20,928 bases of DNA from a virus. This document shows, one piece after another, positions 332 through 20,928 of the stretch (the stretch's first letter is position 1; each line of letters begins with the position of its first letter). The notes under the pieces are model-generated. The model made no database searches. It was given only the letters and a program-made list of their open reading frames with translations, and was not told where the DNA came from. Location: the UHGV virus genome UHGV-0008299; one strand, 5' to 3'. Made by a program: the position numbers and the translations under genes.

Positions 332-357
332 GCCTCGCATTCGCGGGGCTTTTTATT
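332..357 (+). terminator. Rho-independent terminator candidate downstream of the lysis genes
   Basis: 7-bp GC-rich stem (gcctcgc / gcggggc, one G-U pair) with a 4-nt loop, followed by tttttatt. Confidence 0.5.
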
Positions 358-401
358 GCCATTATCAAAGCCACTCCCTACAGAGTGGCTTTGATAATGG
401 C
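358..401. repeat. Perfect 19-bp inverted repeat (hairpin) with 6-nt loop
   Basis: Arm 358-376 gccattatcaaagccactc is the exact reverse complement of arm 383-401 gagtggctttgataatggc; loop cctaca. It directly abuts the terminator T-run. Confidence 0.7.
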
Positions 402-9124: not shown

Positions 9125-9126
9125 TA

Positions 9127-9621
9127 ATGATTTCACATGAAGAGTTGAAGCGTCATTTATCATATGACCCAGAAACCGGGGTTTTTACCCGAAAAATATC
9201 AAATACAGCGAGCGTCACCGTTGGTGATGAAGCGGGAACCATGTGCACTGGTTATTTAAGGATAATGGTCTGTGGTAAGAGATACTTAGCGCATAGGCTT
9301 GCTTGGTTTTATATGACAGGAAAACCTGCAAATTGCTTAATAGATCATATTAACGGAGACAGAACGGATAACAGATTTTCAAATTTAAGATTGGCAAATA
9401 GATCCCAGAATGGGATGAACAGGAATATTCAAAGAAATAATAAGTCAGGATATCCGGGTGTCTGTTGGCACAAAAATCTCTGCAAGTGGACTGTTTCTTT
9501 CAAGAAAAATAAAAAACAGGTTCACGTTGGATGCTTCGATGACCTGGACGAAGCTATCTCAGCATCAATGATGGCAAGAGCAGAAAATTTTGGAGAGTTT
9601 GCAAGGCAGAGGATTGAGTAA
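9127..9621 (+). CDS. HNH homing endonuclease with AP2-like DNA-binding domain
   Basis: 164 aa. HNH motif [23 protein letters not shown], followed by a C-terminal AP2-like segment ([10 protein letters not shown]...WTVSF...[10 protein letters not shown]). Visibly more AT-rich than the flanking gp10 and gp26 genes. Confidence 0.8.
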
Positions 9622-11482: not shown

Positions 11483-12898
11483 ATGGCTACGTGGCAACAG
11501 GGTATTAATTCTGGTGGTTTTCTGGCTGGCATCGGTACGCAAAATGAGAATGCGCCAAAGGCAAGCGACATTAACGCAACGCTTGGTCTGATCCGCGAAA
11601 ACAATGAACTGGCTCGCTCAGGTGCAAATAACGTTGGCCTGACCGCGTTACGTGGTCTGGCTGGAGTTGCTGATATTTACAATCAGGAACAGCAACAGAA
11701 AGCTATTAGTGCGTTCAATAAGGTTCACGCTGATGCATGGGCTTCTGGTGATCCATCGGGACTATTTAAGTTTGCCCAGGAAAATCCAGCGTTTGTTGCA
11801 CAGGCACAACAGGCGTTTTCCGGTCTTAATGATCAGCAACGCAACGATATGGGCGATTTAGCCATGAGGGCTAACGTCGCTCTTTCTCAGGGGCCGGAAG
11901 CCTACAGTAAATTCATTACTGACAACAAGGACAGGTTAAATCGCGTTGGTGCTAATGCTGACTGGATGATTCAGACAGGTATCCAGAATCCAGAGCAGCT
12001 ATCACACATGCTGACTACTATGTCTCTCGGTGCGCTTGGACCAGAAAAGGCGTTTGCTGTTCAGGATAAGATGGCTGGTCGTGAAATTGACCGAGGCAGG
12101 CTGGCAGAGACAATCCGCAGCAATCAGGCTGGTGAAGCACTTCAGGCGAGAGGGCAAAACCTTTCCTATCAGTCAGCAATGACTGGGCACAATATCGCAG
12201 CACAACGCTTGGCTCTGGATCAGCAAGAGTTCGGGTTTAAGATGCAGCAAGCGCAGGAAAAGGCTCAGCAGTTGATTAGCGAAGCACCTAAGCTGTCAGT
12301 AAACATGGAAAAAGGAATCGAGACGGCTGTAAACAATGCCACAGCATCATCAAACTCAGCCAATTCCATGAGTGCGCTTGCTCAACAGTTCAGAGCAGAA
12401 AAACCAACGACAGGTTTGTTCGGTAACGCACAGAACATGTTCGCAAAACTTACCGGAAGCGATACGACATTGCGTGATTTGCGCATTCGCCAAAATGCCC
12501 TTGTTAACAGTCAGGTTCTTAAATTCCTACCTCCCGGCCCAGCAACGGATAAAGACGTTGAGATCGTTAGACAGGGTGCGCCAACTGACATGGATAACCC
12601 TGAGACGGTCGCAAGATGGCTTGATGCAATGGCAAACCTTGAGCGACGAAACGCGCAGTTTAATGAGTTTAAAGCCGAGTGGATGAGCGCGAATGGCAAC
12701 CCTGGACAATCGCGTAATGGCGGTCAGATATTGGGGTTGGATGTTAAAAAAGGTGAATCATTGGGGAGTGCCGTTAAGCGGTATATGTCAATGAATACTG
12801 ACGCAGCGCCAGCACAAGATTCGACACCTTCAGGAGAACCACGGAGTCAGGTTGGATCATATACCTCAAAATCAGGCATTCAATTTACGGTGGAATGA
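11483..12898 (+). CDS. Ejection protein, P22 gp20-like
   Basis: 471 aa, the same size and position as P22 gp20. Confidence 0.7.
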
Positions 12899-14901
12899 TG
12901 AAAGTAACTGCAAACGGTAAGACATTTACCTTTCCTGATGGTACGAGCACCGAAGATATTGGCACCGCCATTGATGAGTATTTTGCTGGTCAGTCAGCAC
13001 CAACACAACAAGGTGTTCAGCAATCGCCAGCAGACAACTCACTTGCATCAGGATATGCACAGCTTGCCACTCAGCAGAAGGAAGGACTAGATCGCTCTGC
13101 TGAGCAAGGGGCTGTTTTAGGTGCTGCAATGCGCGATGCCGTTACCGGTGAAAGCCGAATGACACCAGAAATGGAGAGACTGCAAAATGTTGGGTCTGCT
13201 CCAGAGCTTAATAGCTTAAGCACTGATGCGCTGCGTGCTGGATTGGGGCAGCTATTTGGTTCCGACGCTTCACAGGAGAAAATACTGCAAAGTATTGGCG
13301 GGAAAATCCGGAAGGATGAGAAGGGAAATTCCATAGTCACCCTTCCTTCAGGGGAATATGCACTTAACAAGCCTGGTTTGTCACCGCAGGATATAACGTC
13401 ATTCTTGGCAAATGCTCTTGCATTCACTCCAGCAGGTAGAGCTGCGTCTGTTGTAGGTGCAACACTAAAATCAGGCGCTACTGATTTAGCTTTACAGGGT
13501 GCCACTAAGATCGCTGGCGGTGAGAATGTTAATCCAGTTCAAACTGCAATTTCTGCTGGTCTTGGTGGGGTACTAAAGGGTGTAGAAAACACCGCAAGCG
13601 CAGTGTCTCGTTCTGCTATGGGTAAGATTGCTCCTGAAAAACAAGCTCAGATTGACTTTGCCAAGCAGAACAACTTGCCACTGATGACAACAGATCTTGT
13701 GGAACCGGGAACAAATATTGGTAAGCAAGCACGAGCTATGGCTGAGCGAATCCCAATAGCCGGAACAGGTGGGATAAGAAATGCACAGCAAAAGGCCAGG
13801 GAAGATTTAGTTAGAACATTTAGCGATAATGTTGGTGGAATATCTGACGCACAACTTTACCAATCAGCTACTCGTGGTCAGCAGCAATTTATTCAGGCTG
13901 CTGGCAAGCGGTACGACAGGATCATCAGTTTGATGGGGGATACTCCTGTTGACATCACTGGAACAGTGAAAGCAATTGATGAGCAGATTTCCAAGTTAAC
14001 TCGCCCAGGAGTATCGCAAGACCGCTCAGCTGTTTCTGTCCTTCAACAGTTTAGAAATGACATCACCAGCGGTCCAAATAACCTGCAATTAGCTAGAGAA
14101 AACCGTACAAACTTACGTAAGCGCTTTATGGCAGCACCTGACGAGGTCGATAGAGATACGCTGGAGAAAGCTGCGCAGTCTGTTTATAACGCATACACAA
14201 CAGACATGAAAAAAGCGGTTGGCGCAAAACTAGGTGCGAAGGAAGCGCAAAACATGTCGCGTGTTGATCGTTCTTGGGCAAAGTTCAACGACATGATGAG
14301 CAATACACGTGTCCAAAAAGCTATTCAGAGTGGTAAAACAACGCCAGAAGATGTCACTAAACTAGTATTCAGCCAAAGCCCAGCGGAAAGGGCGCAACTT
14401 TATCGATTGCTTGATGATAGTGGGCGTCAAAATGCTAGAGCAGCACTTGTTCAGCGTGCAATGGATAAGGCGACAAGCGATTCAGGAAAGCTTAGCGTTG
14501 AGAAGTTTATTAATGAAATGAAAAGGAATCGGAAGCAGGCTGAGACGTTCTTCAGAGGAGAGCATGGGAAACAGCTTGATGGGATAATGAAATATCTTGA
14601 TTCCACTAGACAGGCAGCTACTGCTGCCGCAAGCCCACTAACAGGGCAAATGGTAGCTGGTCCAGCAGCGCTGATAACAGCTCTTGCGTCTGTTACAAAT
14701 CCAATGTTTGCAAAAGTTGCGGCAGTTGGAGCTGGTATCGGTATGGCTGGCAGGGGCTATGAGTCACGCGCGATGAGGAACGCATTACTAAAGTTAGCAA
14801 ACACGCCAAAAGGAAGTACTGCTTATGATAGAGCGATCAGACGGGTATCTGAAACTCTTACACCTCTAATTCAGGCTTCAAGTGAGCAAGCCCAGCAGTA
14901 A
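12895..14901 (+). CDS. Ejection protein, P22 gp16-like
   Basis: 668 aa. Last gene of the rightward structural operon before the immI region, in the position of P22 gp16. Start overlaps the upstream stop (ATGA). Confidence 0.7.
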
Positions 14902-14909
14902 AAAGTTGG

Positions 14910-15230
14910 TTAGCGGTTGATGGTTGCTTTTTTCGGGTCATACCATCTCGGCCATTCTTTCAGGAATGGGAATGAGTCGGGAGCGTGGTTCTTTTTGTAC
15001 GATTTAAGCAGCCTTAACCGCTCAATCGCACACTCATAAACCTCTTGTTGCCCTGTAGTCATCTCGGTCCATGAAAGGTGATCCATTGATAAGACAACGT
15101 TTTCAGCTTCTTTTATGAGGGCGTTTTTATTTCTCACCGCAGCAGCATGGCTGACAGAGCAATCCTGCCATATTCTTAAAAGCCAAATAGCTAAGCAGAT
15201 GAAAAAAATGGTAGAGAGCGATATGTACAT
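14910..15230 (-). CDS. Hypothetical small membrane-anchored protein (immI cargo)
   Basis: 106 aa with ATG start. Strong Shine-Dalgarno (AAGGAG, reverse complement of 15238-15243) about 7 nt upstream. N-terminal hydrophobic helix ISLSTIFFICLAIWLLRIW. AT-rich. Confidence 0.5.
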   Translation of the reverse strand: MYISLSTIFFICLAIWLLRIWQDCSVSHAAAVRNKNALIKEAENVVLSMDHLSWTEMTTGQQEVYECAIERLRLLKSYKKNHAPDSFPFLKEWPRWYDPKKATINR

Positions 15231-15310
15231 GCCGATCTCCTTAGATTTATCAATGCTGCATGATTTTCAACAGACATCAATCATGCAGCTATAGGTAATA
15301 AATCAAGAAA

Positions 15311-15820
15311 CTATTGAGAACGTTTGTCTTTTTGAGACTCTAATATAGCCAATACCTTATAAAGAGATTGGTTTGTTGAGTCTAATTTTTGATCAGTGTT
15401 ATCAATCCTTGACTGTAATACTGATTGGTTGTTTTGGATAGTAGCCATTATCTCTGCCTTACTGGTTTGGATGTTTCCTGTTAGCTCTTGTCGTGATGAT
15501 TCAACTTTATCATCTATAGTGCCTCGAATCGTCCATGTGGCGGCAACGATAGAACCAATGATAGCAACTGCAACCCCGTATAGCTCTAAACGTTTCACGG
15601 TATCACGACCTTCTTCTTTGTGTTGCTCTTCTTGTAGGCTAAATATTTGTGGTTCCTTTGACGGATTTCTGTCAGTTGGTCTGTAATACTCTGAATATTT
15701 AGCGTTTTCTATTGAACTCCATAACGATTTGTCAAAGTCAAGGTTTTCATGTTGGCTTTGAGCATCTCCATAAATACTAGGTGATTTATTGTGAACATGT
15801 TGGTCAAACATTATCTCCAT
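15311..15820 (-). CDS. Hypothetical single-pass membrane protein with coiled-coil C-terminus (immI cargo)
   Basis: The track ORF starts at GTG 15823; the first ATG is at 15820. One central hydrophobic helix (LYGVAVAIIGSIVAATWTI) followed by a Gln/Ser/Asp-rich heptad-like region. Overlaps the upstream zinc-ribbon ORF by about 17-20 nt. AT-rich. Confidence 0.55.
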   Translation of the reverse strand: MEIMFDQHVHNKSPSIYGDAQSQHENLDFDKSLWSSIENAKYSEYYRPTDRNPSKEPQIFSLQEEQHKEEGRDTVKRLELYGVAVAIIGSIVAATWTIRGTIDDKVESSRQELTGNIQTSKAEIMATIQNNQSVLQSRIDNTDQKLDSTNQSLYKVLAILESQKDKRSQ

Positions 15821-16151
15821 CACCCTTTACGAATTTTCCAGAAGAGATATTTTCACTAACTTTGTTTAAACTAAAAAAGTGGAAGAAACCGCAAGTGGTG
15901 CATTGCATGGCTACCATGTTAAGACTATCGTTGCTATAAGTATCTTGATTAACAGGATTATTAGGCAAGCTTTTACCTGGTATGGATGGGCCTATAACTT
16001 CAACACCATCATCTTTTTTAAGATGCTCAGGTGCTAAAAGAGTCCAGTTTGTATTGCTGCATATTGGGCATACATAAGTTTTTTTGAATGAAGTCAAGTA
16101 ATTACTAAAAGACTCAAAAGTAACTTTTAAGTATTGCTCCTTACTGCTCAT
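15804..16151 (-). CDS. Hypothetical zinc-ribbon protein (two CxxC pairs), immI cargo
   Basis: 115 aa with CPIC and CTTC motifs about 55 residues apart. Its ATG overlaps the mnt stop (TAATG on the minus strand). gagg Shine-Dalgarno 6 nt upstream. AT-rich. Confidence 0.55.
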   Translation of the reverse strand: MSSKEQYLKVTFESFSNYLTSFKKTYVCPICSNTNWTLLAPEHLKKDDGVEVIGPSIPGKSLPNNPVNQDTYSNDSLNMVAMQCTTCGFFHFFSLNKVSENISSGKFVKGDGDNV

Positions 16152-16390
16152 TATTGGCCTCGAATCTTCTTAAGTACGCTAATTGCAATATCCATTGCTT
16201 CCTTCTCTGTTTTTGTGAGATCTTGAGATGTCGATGGTATGACCTTTTCTCTGTTAATCTTAATCCATAGCTGTATTGCAGCTATGATTTCAGCATTGAT
16301 AGAGCGCCTGTTTGTTGCCGCAATGTGAGTAAGCTGCTGCTTGATTTCACTTGGCATTCTTACGTTAAATTGTGGATCGTTTCTAGCCAC
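16151..16390 (-). CDS. mnt: Mnt repressor (ribbon-helix-helix)
   Basis: N-terminus MARNDPQFNVRMPSEIKQQLTHIAATNRRSINAEI parallels P22 Mnt (MARDDPHFNFRMP...NGRSMNSEL). GTG start with GGAGAG Shine-Dalgarno 4 nt upstream. Divergent from arc. Confidence 0.85.
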   Translation of the reverse strand: MARNDPQFNVRMPSEIKQQLTHIAATNRRSINAEIIAAIQLWIKINREKVIPSTSQDLTKTEKEAMDIAISVLKKIRGQ

Positions 16391-16483
16391 GTCGCTCTCC
16401 TGTTATTTGTTGACATGCTAGAACGGTAGTAGTACGCTTTCAATAGTAGTACGGTGCTATCATTTAATGGAATGGAGTGGAAT
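16391..16483. promoter_or_regulatory. Divergent mnt/arc control region (Pant and Pmnt candidates with repeated operator-like elements)
   Basis: Plus strand: -35 TTGACA at 16410-16415 and a weak -10 TACGCT at 16433-16438. Minus strand: -35 TTGAAA (reverse complement of 16438-16443) and -10 TAGCAT (reverse complement of 16415-16420), 17-bp spacer. Direct repeat TAGTAGTACG at 16427-16436 and 16444-16453. Confidence 0.5.
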
Positions 16484-16645
16484 ATGCAAGGCGCAAGAAA
16501 AATGCCGCAGTTCAATTTGCGGTGGCCTAAAGAAGTATTGGATTTGGTACGCAAGGTGGCGGAAGAGAATGGTCGGTCTGTTAACTCTGAGATTTATCAG
16601 AGAGTAATGGACAGCTTTAAGAAGGAAGGGCGCATTGGCGCGTAA
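16484..16645 (+). CDS. arc: Arc repressor (ribbon-helix-helix)
   Basis: [53 protein letters not shown] is near-identical to P22 Arc as I recall it. The track ORF starts further upstream at 16454, but ATG 16484 with ggagtgg upstream gives the canonical Arc length. Confidence 0.88.
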
Positions 16646-16725
16646 AGTTGAAGCCCCAACTACGGGAACAGTCAGGGCTTCGGTTGTCGGTAAATTCGTG
16701 GAGAAAAACCAACATGAATAGTATA
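16646..16725 (-). ncRNA. sar: sar-like antisense RNA candidate (promoter plus transcript)
   Basis: Minus-strand -10 TATACT (reverse complement of 16720-16725) just inside ant. Transcription from about 16712 would run about 68 nt through the ant ribosome-binding site to a hairpin (GAAGCCC/GGGCTTC, 16650-16681) followed by CUUUA. P22 has a 68-69 nt sar RNA at this position. Confidence 0.4.
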
Positions 16726-17649
16726 GCAATTTTAGAAGCAGTGAACACCTCTTACGTGCCTTTCAATGGTCAGCAGATTTTAACCGCTGTGGCTGCCGGA
16801 GTGACTTATGTAGCGATGCGTCAAATTGTGGAAAACATTGGTATCGACTGGACTGGTCAATCTGTTAAGTTGCGTAAAATGAAGGACAAATTCAACTGTA
16901 GAGATATCTCTATGGTTGCTGCTGATGGCAAGTTACGTAAGCTTTTATGCATCCCGCTGAAGAAGTTAAATGGATGGCTGTTCAGCATCAACCCTGAGAA
17001 AGTTCGTGCTGACATCCGTGATAAACTGATTCAGTACCAGGAAGAATGCTTTAGCGTGCTGCATGACTACTGGACTAAAGGTCATGTAGTTAACCCACGC
17101 AAAGCTAAAAAGGCGTTGCCGGGTAAAATCACCACTGAACAGCAGGAAGCCATTAAACAACTCGTCATGAGTCGCGGTCAGTCTCTGCCAAAAGAAAAAC
17201 AGGCTAAGGCGATGATCACCATGTGGTCGTCACTGAAATCCCATTTTGGATGTTCGTACAAAGAAATCAGTGAGGAGCAGTTTACCGAAGCACTATCACT
17301 TGCAGCTCGAGTTCCACTTGAAGGTGAGTTCATTGGCAAACAAGAGAAGAAAACCAACGAGCTTTCTGCAAAAGAAGCAAACAGCCTTGTATGGTTATGG
17401 GATTATGCTAACCGCTCACAGGCATTATTCCGCGAACTGTATCCGGCATTAAAACAAATTCAATCGAACTATTCCGGCAGATGCTACGACTACGGTCATG
17501 AATTCTCGTATGTTATCGGAATGGCGAGAGACGTTTTAATCAATCACACACGCGATGTTGATATCAATGAGCCAGACGGACCAACGAATCTTTCCGCATG
17601 GATGAGACTTAAGAATAAAGAATTACCTCCTTCAGTACATAACTACTGA
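16714..17649 (+). CDS. ant: Antirepressor Ant
   Basis: The track ORF starts at TTG 16648; the first ATG is at 16714 ([21 protein letters not shown]...), with ggag at 16700-16703. Position after arc, about 310 aa, as for P22 Ant. Confidence 0.8.
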
Positions 17650-17668
17650 CAGATAACCAACGCGACAA

Positions 17669-17691
17669 CCCAGCTTCGGCTGGGTTTTTTT
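17669..17691 (+). terminator. Rho-independent terminator after ant
   Basis: cccagc-ttcg-gctggg 6-bp stem with a 4-nt loop, followed by a 7-T run. Confidence 0.7.
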
Positions 17692-17749
17692 ATGCCCAAA
17701 ATTCACCGTAGCCATGCTGCGGCGATTCCTTGTATCTGGAGCAAATTAA

Positions 17750-20695
17750 ATGACAGACATTACAGCCAATGTGATCGTATCGATGCCTTCGCAACTCTTC
17801 ACTATGGCGCGTTCTTTTAAAGCCGTAGCCAATGGTAAAATTTATATCGGTAAAATTGACACTGACCCGGTAAACCCTGAAAACCAGATTCAGGTTTATG
17901 TGGAGAACGAAGACGGCTCTCACGTTCCTGTTTCGCAACCAATCATCATTAACGCCGCTGGTTATCCTGTATATAACGGACAGATTGCCAAATTCGTAAC
18001 TGAGCAAGGCCATTCTATGGCTGTTTATGATGCGTATGGTGCACAGCAGTTCTATTTTCCTAATGTGCTGAAGTATGATCCTGATCAGCTACGGCAGCAA
18101 TTAGAAGACCCAGATGGAGCGGATAAATACCCAAAACTTCAGATAGCAAGATGGAGAGACAGTTATGATCTAAGAGGTTGGGGGGCTATTGGTGATGGTG
18201 TTCATGATGACACATCAGCTCTATCAGAATTACTTTCTGTTGCAACAGGTGGTGAAAAGATAGATGGGCGAGGGCTTACTTTTAAAGTGTCAACTCTTCC
18301 GGATGTCAGTCGATTTAAAAATGCTCGTTTTTTATTTGAGAGAATACCGGGTCAGCCTCTTTTTTATGCTTCTGAAGATTTTATCCAGGGAGAGTTGTTT
18401 AAAATTACAGATACACCGTGGTACAACGCCTGGACGCAGGATAAAACGTTTGTATATGACAATGTCATCTATGCGCCTTTTATGGCTGGAGACCGCCATG
18501 GTGTAAATAACCTCCATGTTGCATGGGTTCGCTCAGGAGATGACGGGAAGACCTGGACAACGCCGGAATGGCTTACAGATTTACATGAAAACTATCCCAC
18601 AGTTAACTATCACTGCATGAGTATGGGGGTTGTCAGAAATCGCCTTTTTGCTGTAATTGAGACGCGGACCGTGAGCGGAAATAAACTGCAGGTTGCAGAG
18701 TTGTGGGATCGCCCAATGAGTCGCAGCCTTCGCGTTTATGGTGGTATAACGAAAGCAGCAAATCAGCAAGTCGCTTATATTCGCATTACTGATCACGGAT
18801 TATTTGCTGGTGATTTTGTCAACTTCTCAAACTCTGGTGTTACAGGTGTTACCGGGAATATGACGGTGACTACTGTTATTGATAAAAATACTTTTACAGT
18901 TACGACGCAAAATACCCAGGATGTGGATCAGAATAACGAGGGTAGATACTGGAGTTTTGGTACATCATTTCACTCGTCACCATGGAGAAAAACCCGTCTT
19001 GGAACTATTCCTTCTTTTGTTGACGGAAGCACTCCTGTTACTGAGATTCACAGTTTTGCGACGATTAGCGATAACAGTTTTGCTGTTGGCTACCATAATG
19101 GTGATATTGGGCCACGCGAGCTTGGGATACTCTATTTCTCTGATGCTTTCGGTTCTCCTGGTAGCTTTGTTCGCAGACGCATACCTGCAGAATATGAGGC
19201 GAATGCATCTGAGCCATGTGTAAAATATTATGATGGCATTCTGTATCTGACGACCAGGGGAACATTAAGTACTCAACCCGGTAGTTCATTACACAGAAGC
19301 TCTGATTTAGGTGCATCATGGAATTCTCTTCGCTTCCCAAATAATGTTCATCACTCAAACCTTCCTTTTGCCAAAGTTGGCGATGAGCTGATTATTTTTG
19401 GCAGTGAGCGCGCATTTGGTGAGTGGGAAGGAGGAGAACCTGATAACCGTTATGCAGGAAATTATCCAAGAACATTTATGACCAGAGTTAACGTCAATGA
19501 GTGGAGTCTGGATAATGTAGAGTGGGTTAATGTTACTGATCAGATTTATCAGGGCGGAATAGTTAACTCTGCGGTTGGTGTTGGTTCAGTTTGTATCAAA
19601 GACAACTGGCTGTACTACATTTTCGGTGGGGAAGACTTTCTAAACCCATGGAGCATAGGGGATAACAACAGAAAATATCCTTATGTTCACGATGGTCACC
19701 CGGCTGATTTGTATTGTTTCAGGGTAAAAATTAAACAGGAAGAATTTGTTTCAAGGGATTTTGTCTACGGAGCCACTCCTAACAGAACGCTTCCTACTTT
19801 TATGTCGACGTCAGGCGTGAGGACGGTTCCTGTACCCGTTGATTTCACAGATGATGTTGCCGTCCAGTCACTGACTGTCCATGCCGGTACATCAGGACAA
19901 GTTCGCGCGGAAGTCAAACTTGAGGGTAATTACGCCATTATTGCGAAGAAAGTACCGTCTGATGATGTTACCGCTCAGAGATTAATCGTTAGCGGCGGTG
20001 AAACAACGTCTTCAGCAGATGGTGCAATGATAACGTTGCATGGTTCCGGAAGCAGTACTCCACGTCGCGCGGTATATAACGCACTCGAACATCTTTTTGA
20101 GAACGGAGATGTTAAACCTTATCTTGATAATGTAAATGCTCTTGGTGGTCCGGGAAACAGGTTCTCGACAGTTTATCTTGGCTCCAACCCTGTAGTTACC
20201 AGTGACGGAACATTAAAGACAGAGCCGGTCTCTCCTGATGAAGCATTGCTGGATGCCTGGGGTGACGTCAGGTATATCGCTTATAAATGGCTGAACGCTG
20301 TCGCTATAAAGGGGGAAGAAGGGGCGAGGATACATCATGGTGTAATCGCGCAGCAACTTCGTGATGTTCTTATTTCTCACGGACTCATGGAAGAAGAAAG
20401 CACAACATGCCGCTATGCCTTTCTTTGTTATGACGATTATCCCGCAGTATATGATGACGTCATTACTGGCCAAAGGGAAATGCCGCTGACTGATAATGAC
20501 GGGAGCATCATTGTTGATGAGGATGATAATCCAGTGATGGTAATGGAAGACATCATTGAGCGCGTTGAAATAACGCCAGCAGGATCTAGATGGGGGGTCA
20601 GACCTGATCTCTTATTCTATATCGAGGCAGCATGGCAGCGCAGAGAAATAGAAAGAATAAAAGCTAGGTTAGACTTAATAGAAGGGAAGCACTAA
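17750..20695 (+). CDS. Tailspike: P22-type head-binding domain fused to a sialidase-like (endosialidase-type) receptor domain and C-terminal intramolecular chaperone domain
   Basis: 981 aa. The first ~115 residues ([11 protein letters not shown]...VLKYDPDQ) parallel the P22 gp9 head-binding domain. Downstream there are two Asp-box motifs (SGDDGKTW at 18533-18556, SSDLGASW at 19298-19321) and a C-terminal region with an S-x4-K motif (SDGTLK, 20201-20218) and ...[20 protein letters not shown]..., resembling the self-cleaving chaperone domain of K1 endosialidases. Confidence 0.8.
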
Positions 20696-20848: not shown

Positions 20849-20928
20849 ATGTCAAGACTCAAGACTCAAGACTCAAGACTCAAGACTCAAGACTCAAGAC
20901 TCAAGACTCAAGACTCAAGACTCAAGAC
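20849..20928 (+). CDS. neuO: Start of neuO-like phase-variable O-acetyltransferase gene (5' end only; continues beyond window)
   Basis: ATG at 20849, then in-frame AAGACTC heptanucleotide repeats encoding MSRLKTQDSRLKTQD... This matches the known 5' repeat tract of CUS-3 neuO. Only 80 nt lie in the window. Confidence 0.75.
   Translation, partial: MSRLKTQDSRLKTQDSRLKTQDSRLK
20852..20928. repeat. Heptanucleotide tandem repeat (AAGACTC)n, at least 10 perfect copies, truncated by the window edge
   Basis: Perfect 7-nt periodicity from 20854 to the window end (10 full units plus a partial). It lies within the 5' coding region of the ORF starting at 20849. Confidence 0.95.

Follow-up and report, generated by a model that had tools for sequence, protein, structure and literature searches.

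A tailspike gene allelic to CUS-3 siaK1

We analysed a stretch of 20,928 nucleotides (nt) from the virus genome UHGV-0008299 (hereafter the window) and focused on the gene at positions 17750-20695 of its plus strand, a single unbroken open reading frame (ORF) in the window's ORF list that begins with ATG and encodes 981 amino acids (aa). The gene is the last of a P22-type late operon, preceded by the ejection-protein genes and the ant moron. Over its full length it is 98.6% identical in nucleotide sequence and 98.9% in amino acid sequence to siaK1 of CUS-3 (CP000711.1; host Escherichia coli RS218), and the two are collinear without a gap, with 41 nucleotide and 11 amino acid differences between them. 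In that record siaK1 is annotated as 'endosialidase tailspike protein', and its endo-alpha-sialidase activity is marked as directly assayed (IDA, PMID 16689790). The gene product is almost certainly the tailspike with which a temperate podovirus of E. coli K1, P22-type and CUS-3-like, destroys its receptor. The initial annotation of this DNA had proposed a domain-swap tailspike, in which a P22-type head-binding domain is joined to an enzyme against the K1 capsule beside neuO, and the near-identity to siaK1 bears this proposal out. The gene and its parts are as follows.

17750..20695, plus strand: tailspike gene, allele of CUS-3 siaK1 / endoNK1, 981 aa plus stop (ORF and 98.6% nt identity to CP000711.1 siaK1)
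17750..18088, plus strand: P22-type head-binding domain (virion attachment), aa 1-113 (Head_binding PF09008, E 1.4e-65; PDB 7sg7, 2xc1, 1lkt)
18089..18184, plus strand: joint and neck, aa 114-145 (P22-like similarity stops and endoNF-like similarity starts)
18185..18385, plus strand: endosialidase N-terminal extension, aa 146-212 (End_N_terminal PF12218, E 8.8e-37)
18386..19735, plus strand: catalytic six-bladed beta-propeller, aa 213-662 (End_beta_propel PF12217, E 3.9e-233; PDB 3gvl, 1v0e, E = 0)
18533..18556, plus strand: Asp-box 1, SGDDGKTW, aa 262-269 (motif scan; aligned to endoNF SGDDGQTW)
18719..18967, plus strand: beta-barrel inserted in the propeller, aa 324-406 (End_beta_barrel PF12195, E 1.2e-46)
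19298..19321, plus strand: Asp-box 2, SSDLGASW, aa 517-524 (motif scan; aligned to endoNF SRDIGQTW; CUS-3 has T at aa 522)
19736..20200, plus strand: stalk, aa 663-817 (End_tail_spike PF12219, E 7.5e-78; the endoNF structures stop exactly at aa 817)
20201..20692, plus strand: C-terminal intramolecular chaperone domain, aa 818-981, with predicted self-cleavage before S818 (PF13884, PDB 3gw6, K1F boundary)

Domain architecture and predicted specificity

A Pfam scan returned six domains, ordered as expected and each scoring well beyond its curated cut-off. Head_binding PF09008 scored 219 bits at aa 1-113 against a cut-off of 24, PF12217 was matched over its full length (1-367 of 367), as were PF12195, PF12218 and PF12219, and Peptidase_S74 PF13884 ('chaperone of endosialidase') spans aa 818-878, scoring 41.6 bits (E 1.6e-10) where the cut-off is 22. 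Searching the PDB by sequence led to the same division. Its N-terminal matches were Sf6 gp14 (7sg7; aa 1-118, E 1e-65), P22 gp9 (2xc1, 1lkt, 8tvr) and the head-binding structure 2vky, with the Sf6 and P22 matches spanning E 1e-65 to 1e-44. The catalytic part of the K1F endosialidase, endoNF (1v0e, 3gvl), matched aa 145-817 with E = 0, the phi92 endosialidase 4hiz matched with E 5e-273, and the C-terminal domain (CTD) of endoNF, 3gw6, matched aa 698-979 with E 8e-95. Structures of 56-70% identity cover aa 1-127 and aa 145-979.

The likeness of the first ~115 residues to the P22 gp9 head-binding domain, noted initially, is therefore upheld by PF09008 at aa 1-113 and by a tblastn identity of 75.2% to gp9. 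The description of the remainder as a sialidase-like receptor domain was right in kind but understated, given four endosialidase Pfam domains with E-values from 4e-233 to 9e-37: the C-terminal 850 residues are, judged from their sequence, a bona fide endosialidase and not merely sialidase-like. It also overlooked the C-terminal chaperone (aa 818-981), which is predicted to be cut off in the mature spike.

We considered whether the sialidase fold might instead belong to an exo-sialidase, or to a depolymerase for K92 or a non-sialic polymer, and not to a K1 endosialidase. Asp-boxes and beta-propellers are indeed common to all sialidases, Pfam BNR_2 gave a weak sub-threshold match (E 0.0021), and our protein has 60% identity to the phi92 endosialidase, whose substrates also include K92. 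Against this, the endosialidase-specific domains are present at full length, including the beta-barrel and the stalk, which exo-sialidases lack; the protein is 98.9% identical to one with assayed endo-alpha-2,8-sialidase activity; and those records holding the gene that name a serovar are K1 strains. We give practically no credence to another specificity, and retain the K1 endosialidase.

The joint between the two modules

By several lines of evidence the joint maps to nt 18088-18104, which fits the initial annotation, where similarity to P22 was said to stop near nt 18095. In tblastn, P22 gp9 is 75.2% identical over aa 1-113 and matches no further, and Sf6 is 90.4% identical over aa 1-114. 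At the DNA level, the matches of the window to N7, Huey, Sf101, Kapi1, E212 and EC.P3, P22-like phages with other receptor domains, all stop at nt 18088-18103, and that to HZ41 stops at nt 18104. From the other side, local alignment with gp17 of K1F runs from aa 114 (nt 18089; K1F residue 214) to the end of the protein, with 53% identity in the neck (aa 116-145). In a multiple alignment the switch falls right behind the conserved YDPDQLR hinge. A head-binding domain boundary at aa 1-115 has been described for P22-like phages (PMC2629481).

The joint leaves no trace in base composition. The receptor part had been thought to be AT-richer, and this did not hold up: total guanine-plus-cytosine (GC) content is 0.438 at nt 17750-18094 and 0.444 at nt 18095-20695, and a sliding GC profile showed no step at the joint. 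Third-position GC is 0.426 before the joint, where there are 115 codons, and 0.362 after it, a gap that we estimate at ~1.4 standard errors and that lies within noise. The tailspike gene as a whole has a GC content of 0.443, lower than that of the rest of the window (0.484).

Active-site and maturation residues

Scanning for the Asp-box pattern S-x-D-x-G-x-T/S-W recovered the two motifs named in the initial annotation; both are real, each aligning with its counterpart in endoNF. In the pairwise alignment with K1F gp17, endoNF residues H350, E581, R596 and R647 correspond to H250, E488, R503 and R554 here, and all four are conserved. E581, R596 and R647 are active-site residues of endoNF, and the R647A mutant chain 3gvj is among the PDB matches.

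The maturation site is likewise kept. The K1F pair S911/K916 corresponds to S818/K823 here, within the conserved motif YLGSNPVVT/SDGTLKTEP (slash, cleavage point). In the K1F record, mature gp17* ends and the released CTD begins exactly at the position equivalent to the S818 cut, and the crystallised endoNF fragments stop at the residue aligned to aa 817.

Proposed working of the tailspike

What was obtained directly is how the domains are arranged, where the joint lies, that catalytic and cleavage residues are conserved and that the gene is nearly identical to CUS-3 siaK1. For trimerisation, enzyme activity, self-cleavage and virion attachment of this allele, we infer from studied homologues, because the protein is 98.9% identical to an assayed one and 64% identical to a structurally solved one, and because the behaviour of endoNF and P22 gp9 is known. 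By this analogy, the N-terminal 113 residues would dock the trimeric spike on the P22-type tail hub. The endosialidase module, consisting of the N-terminal extension, the propeller with its barrel and two Asp-boxes, and the stalk, would bind the alpha-2,8-polysialic acid of the K1 capsule and cleave it internally, which would let the virion tunnel to the outer membrane during adsorption. The last 164 residues would act as an intramolecular chaperone, driving trimer folding of the stalk and then probably cutting themselves off before Ser818 by means of the Ser818/Lys823 pair. In the lysogen, the adjoining phase-variable neuO would O-acetylate the same polymer.

Flanking spacer and neuO

The order ant, spacer, tailspike and neuO repeat is the same in the window as in CUS-3. 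The two elements that border the tailspike gene are as follows.

17650..17749, plus strand: ant-tailspike spacer, 100 nt, equivalent to the CUS-3 boundary sequence bsq1 (CUS-3 annotation)
20849..20928, plus strand: start of neuO (polysialic acid O-acetyltransferase) with the poly-psi heptanucleotide repeat, cut by the window end (sequence, Tandem Repeats Finder (TRF), CUS-3 annotation)

A hairpin scan revealed a terminator-like hairpin at 17667-17686 in the spacer. Downstream of the tailspike gene, the next 233 nt agree with CUS-3 at 229 positions, and the ATG at 20849 is followed by at least 11 AAGACTC heptamers up to the window end (TRF: period 7, 100% match). CP000711.1 annotates this repeat_region as neuO, and neuO is located between siaK1 and int (PMC8653822). 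The neighbouring neuO-like gene that had been suggested is thus real. Since the repeat runs off the window end, the repeat number and the on/off phase of neuO are unreadable here. At its start, neuO reads ATG TCA AGA CTC in the window and ATG TTA AGA CTC in CUS-3. A minus-strand ORF over the start of the tailspike gene (17690-18013, 107 aa) was rejected as spurious, as it lies wholly within conserved coding and spacer sequence. An Rfam search found no RNA element in or beside the tailspike gene; its sole match was sar, upstream.

Uneven divergence across the module boundary

Substitutions relative to CUS-3 are distributed unevenly. The first 435 nt of the gene hold 21 of the 41 (Fisher p = 3e-8), whereas only 15 positions differ at nt 18400-20695 (99.3% identity). 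The 3' end of ant is 93.9% identical to CUS-3, and the ant 3' end, head-binding and neck regions together lie at 94-95%. The segment from ant to the head-binding domain (16901-18104) is 98.0% identical to the P22-like phage HZ41, whose receptor domain is unrelated. This step in divergence, together with a 5' block closest to HZ41, indicates that reassortment occurred at or just past the hinge, and the step is consistent with continuing exchange there, as judged by sequence comparison. The far lower divergence of the receptor module indicates that it is either much younger or much more constrained than the backbone.

An extension of this view is that the endosialidase gene portion and neuO form a cassette that was recently mobile and was put onto a diverged P22-like backbone, the hinge at 18088-18104 and a site near 18271 being live recombination joints. 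In its favour, identity to CUS-3 rises from ~91% in the virion genes through 94-95% from ant to the head-binding domain to 99.2% in the receptor module, and the same module occurs at 99.2% nucleotide identity in the Uetakevirus ZX5. We regard this cassette as a tentative and rather doubtful proposal. If true, it would mean that the cassette now retargets unrelated temperate podoviruses to K1 strains, with the mechanism of the tailspike unchanged.

Distribution and integrity of the gene

A full-length copy of the gene, annotated 'phage tailspike protein', is held by 181 of 5426 complete E. coli genomes, and the K1 strains S88, CE10 and APEC O1 are among the carriers. No observation speaks against our assignment, to which four caveats attach. 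Among complete E. coli genomes and phage records, none matches the gene above 98.8-98.9%, the best match to its 5' 550 nt reaches only 96.9%, and none covers more than 75% of the window. The allele differs from the assayed CUS-3 protein at 11 aa, enzyme activity here being a prediction from sequence, and one of these changes, T522A relative to CUS-3, falls on a variable position of Asp-box 2. In addition, an IS3-family transposase interrupts a CUS-3-type tailspike gene in NZ_CP101741.1 (FY26) and NZ_LR134031.1 (NCTC11151), from which it follows that decay does occur among tailspikes of this type and that some lysogens carry an inactivated spike.

The last observation bears on a second alternative, namely a relic gene in a defective prophage: its ORF would be intact but no virion would be made, and the endosialidase would be drifting or would be kept only by its linkage to neuO. 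The interrupted tailspikes of FY26 and NCTC11151 speak for it, and the window holds the late region only, with integrase, immunity and replication genes beyond what can be judged from it; that it does not speak to the intactness of the prophage as a whole is the fourth caveat on our assignment. However, none of the virion genes in the 21-kb window is broken or deviates from its expected ORF length, just 11 of 981 aa are changed with all catalytic and cleavage residues kept, and the tailspike gene shows no sign of pseudogenisation. We therefore consider a relic very improbable, though somewhat less so than a different specificity, and keep to a functional tailspike.

Taken together, these results fix the annotation of the gene as a K1-specific endosialidase tailspike and indicate that the DNA comes from a lysogen of E. 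coli K1 type, or from a phage of such a lysogen, that carries a phase-variable neuO capsule-acetylation locus. They are relevant to strains that cause neonatal meningitis, to extraintestinal pathogenic E. coli (ExPEC) and avian pathogenic E. coli (APEC), and to endosialidases employed as reagents that strip capsules.

The prophage backbone around the tailspike

The rest of the window carries a complete P22-type virion gene set, about 91% identical to that of CUS-3, in the order terminase, portal, scaffold, coat, homologues of gp4/10/26/14/7/20/16, mnt/arc/sar/ant and tailspike. Some 70% of the window's length can be aligned to CUS-3, with identities of 91-98%, and 12081-16975 and 9125-9610 are without counterpart; the prophage is evidently a mosaic relative of CUS-3 and not the same phage. 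The P22-type immI region (16151-17649) contains the following.

16151-16390, minus strand: mnt-like ORF
16454-16645, plus strand: arc-like ORF
16646-16713, minus strand: sar antisense RNA (Rfam RF00262, 89.5 bits)
16714-17649, plus strand: ant

Neither the ejection-protein genes of the window nor the left part of this immI region matches CUS-3 in DNA. According to a published comparison, arc is apparently missing from CUS-3 (PMC2629481); the window has an arc-like ORF, so that the control of ant differs between them. The segment 12081-16975 shows practically no resemblance to CUS-3 in its DNA and forms a mosaic block of its own, with most of the gp20 homologue, the whole gp16 homologue and mnt/arc, as well as three small minus-strand ORFs (PHROGs 10450, 24865 and 4293).

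Two further differences from CUS-3 were observed. An HNH endonuclease ORF of 164 aa (9127-9621, plus strand; PHROG_99, E 4e-70) lies between the homologues of gp10 and gp26 (tail needle). CUS-3 lacks it (blastn gap 9125-9610), and among 50,697 phage records only one, vB_EcoP-683R2, has it at full length; it looks like a free-standing homing endonuclease inserted in the P22-type tail gene cluster. Conversely, nothing in the window corresponds to the hypothetical CUS-3 ORF ECRS218_0024 (612 nt), which is flanked by the lysis genes on one side and hkbM/small terminase on the other; in the window the blocks that flank the gap (window 355-382 versus CUS-3 23029-23869) abut within ~30 nt.

Comparison with known systems

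The closest known system is the siaK1 tailspike of CUS-3 itself (ABQ88383.1; Stummeyer et al. 2006, PMID 16689790; King et al. 2007, PMID 17601779). It shares with our gene the length of 981 aa, the domain order, the joint and the flanks, with ant and the spacer upstream and the neuO poly-psi repeat downstream. It differs in that the window's segment from ant to the head-binding domain is nearer to HZ41 (98.0%) than to CUS-3 (94-95%), and in that the surrounding backbone is 91% identical or, in places, unrelated. In a review CUS-3 serves as the textbook case of how tailspikes evolve by exchanging modules, the N-terminal domain being common to HK620, Sf6 and P22 and the catalytic domain to K1F (PMC5380687). 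With this module exchange and the P22-like head-binding boundary already in the literature, the finding is correct and already known. As an allele of a characterised protein, the feature is not new in itself; its architecture, structure, maturation and module-exchange origin have all been published for CUS-3 and K1F, and the tailspike raises no new question. What is added is modest, namely a new allele and a case in which the step in divergence at a module boundary is plainly visible.

With K1F gp17 (endoNF, GH58; structures 1v0e, 3gvl and 3gw6), the receptor module aligns from the neck to the CTD, at 64% identity over 851 aligned residues and 70% in the propeller; the catalytic E/R/R, H350, both Asp-boxes and the Ser/Lys self-cleavage pair are kept. 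The N-terminal part is different, with ~213 residues in K1F, described as T7 tail-fibre-like (PMC5380687), versus the 113-residue P22-type domain here, and K1F itself is a lytic Kayfunavirus. K1E-type endosialidases are 58-59% identical to the window protein.

The tailspikes of P22 (gp9), Sf6 (gp14) and HK620, all Lederbergvirus, show the opposite pattern. They have the head-binding domain in common with our protein, ending at the conserved YDPDQ hinge, and past the N-terminal ~127 residues no similarity to them was found by PDB search, tblastn or multiple alignment. The catalytic domains of P22, Sf6 and HK620 are wholly different from that of CUS-3 (PMC5380687), and the PDB records of P22 gp9 call it an endorhamnosidase.

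A further arrangement is seen in vB_EcoP_ZX5 (Uetakevirus, MW722083.1; tail fibre QTH80017.1, 2303-5422), in which the endosialidase module is 99.2% identical in nucleotide sequence to window 18271-20663, whereas the N-terminal ~232 residues are different and the last ~10 residues differ too. The ZX5 junction, at ~aa 174 in our protein, falls within the endosialidase N-terminal extension and not at the P22 hinge.

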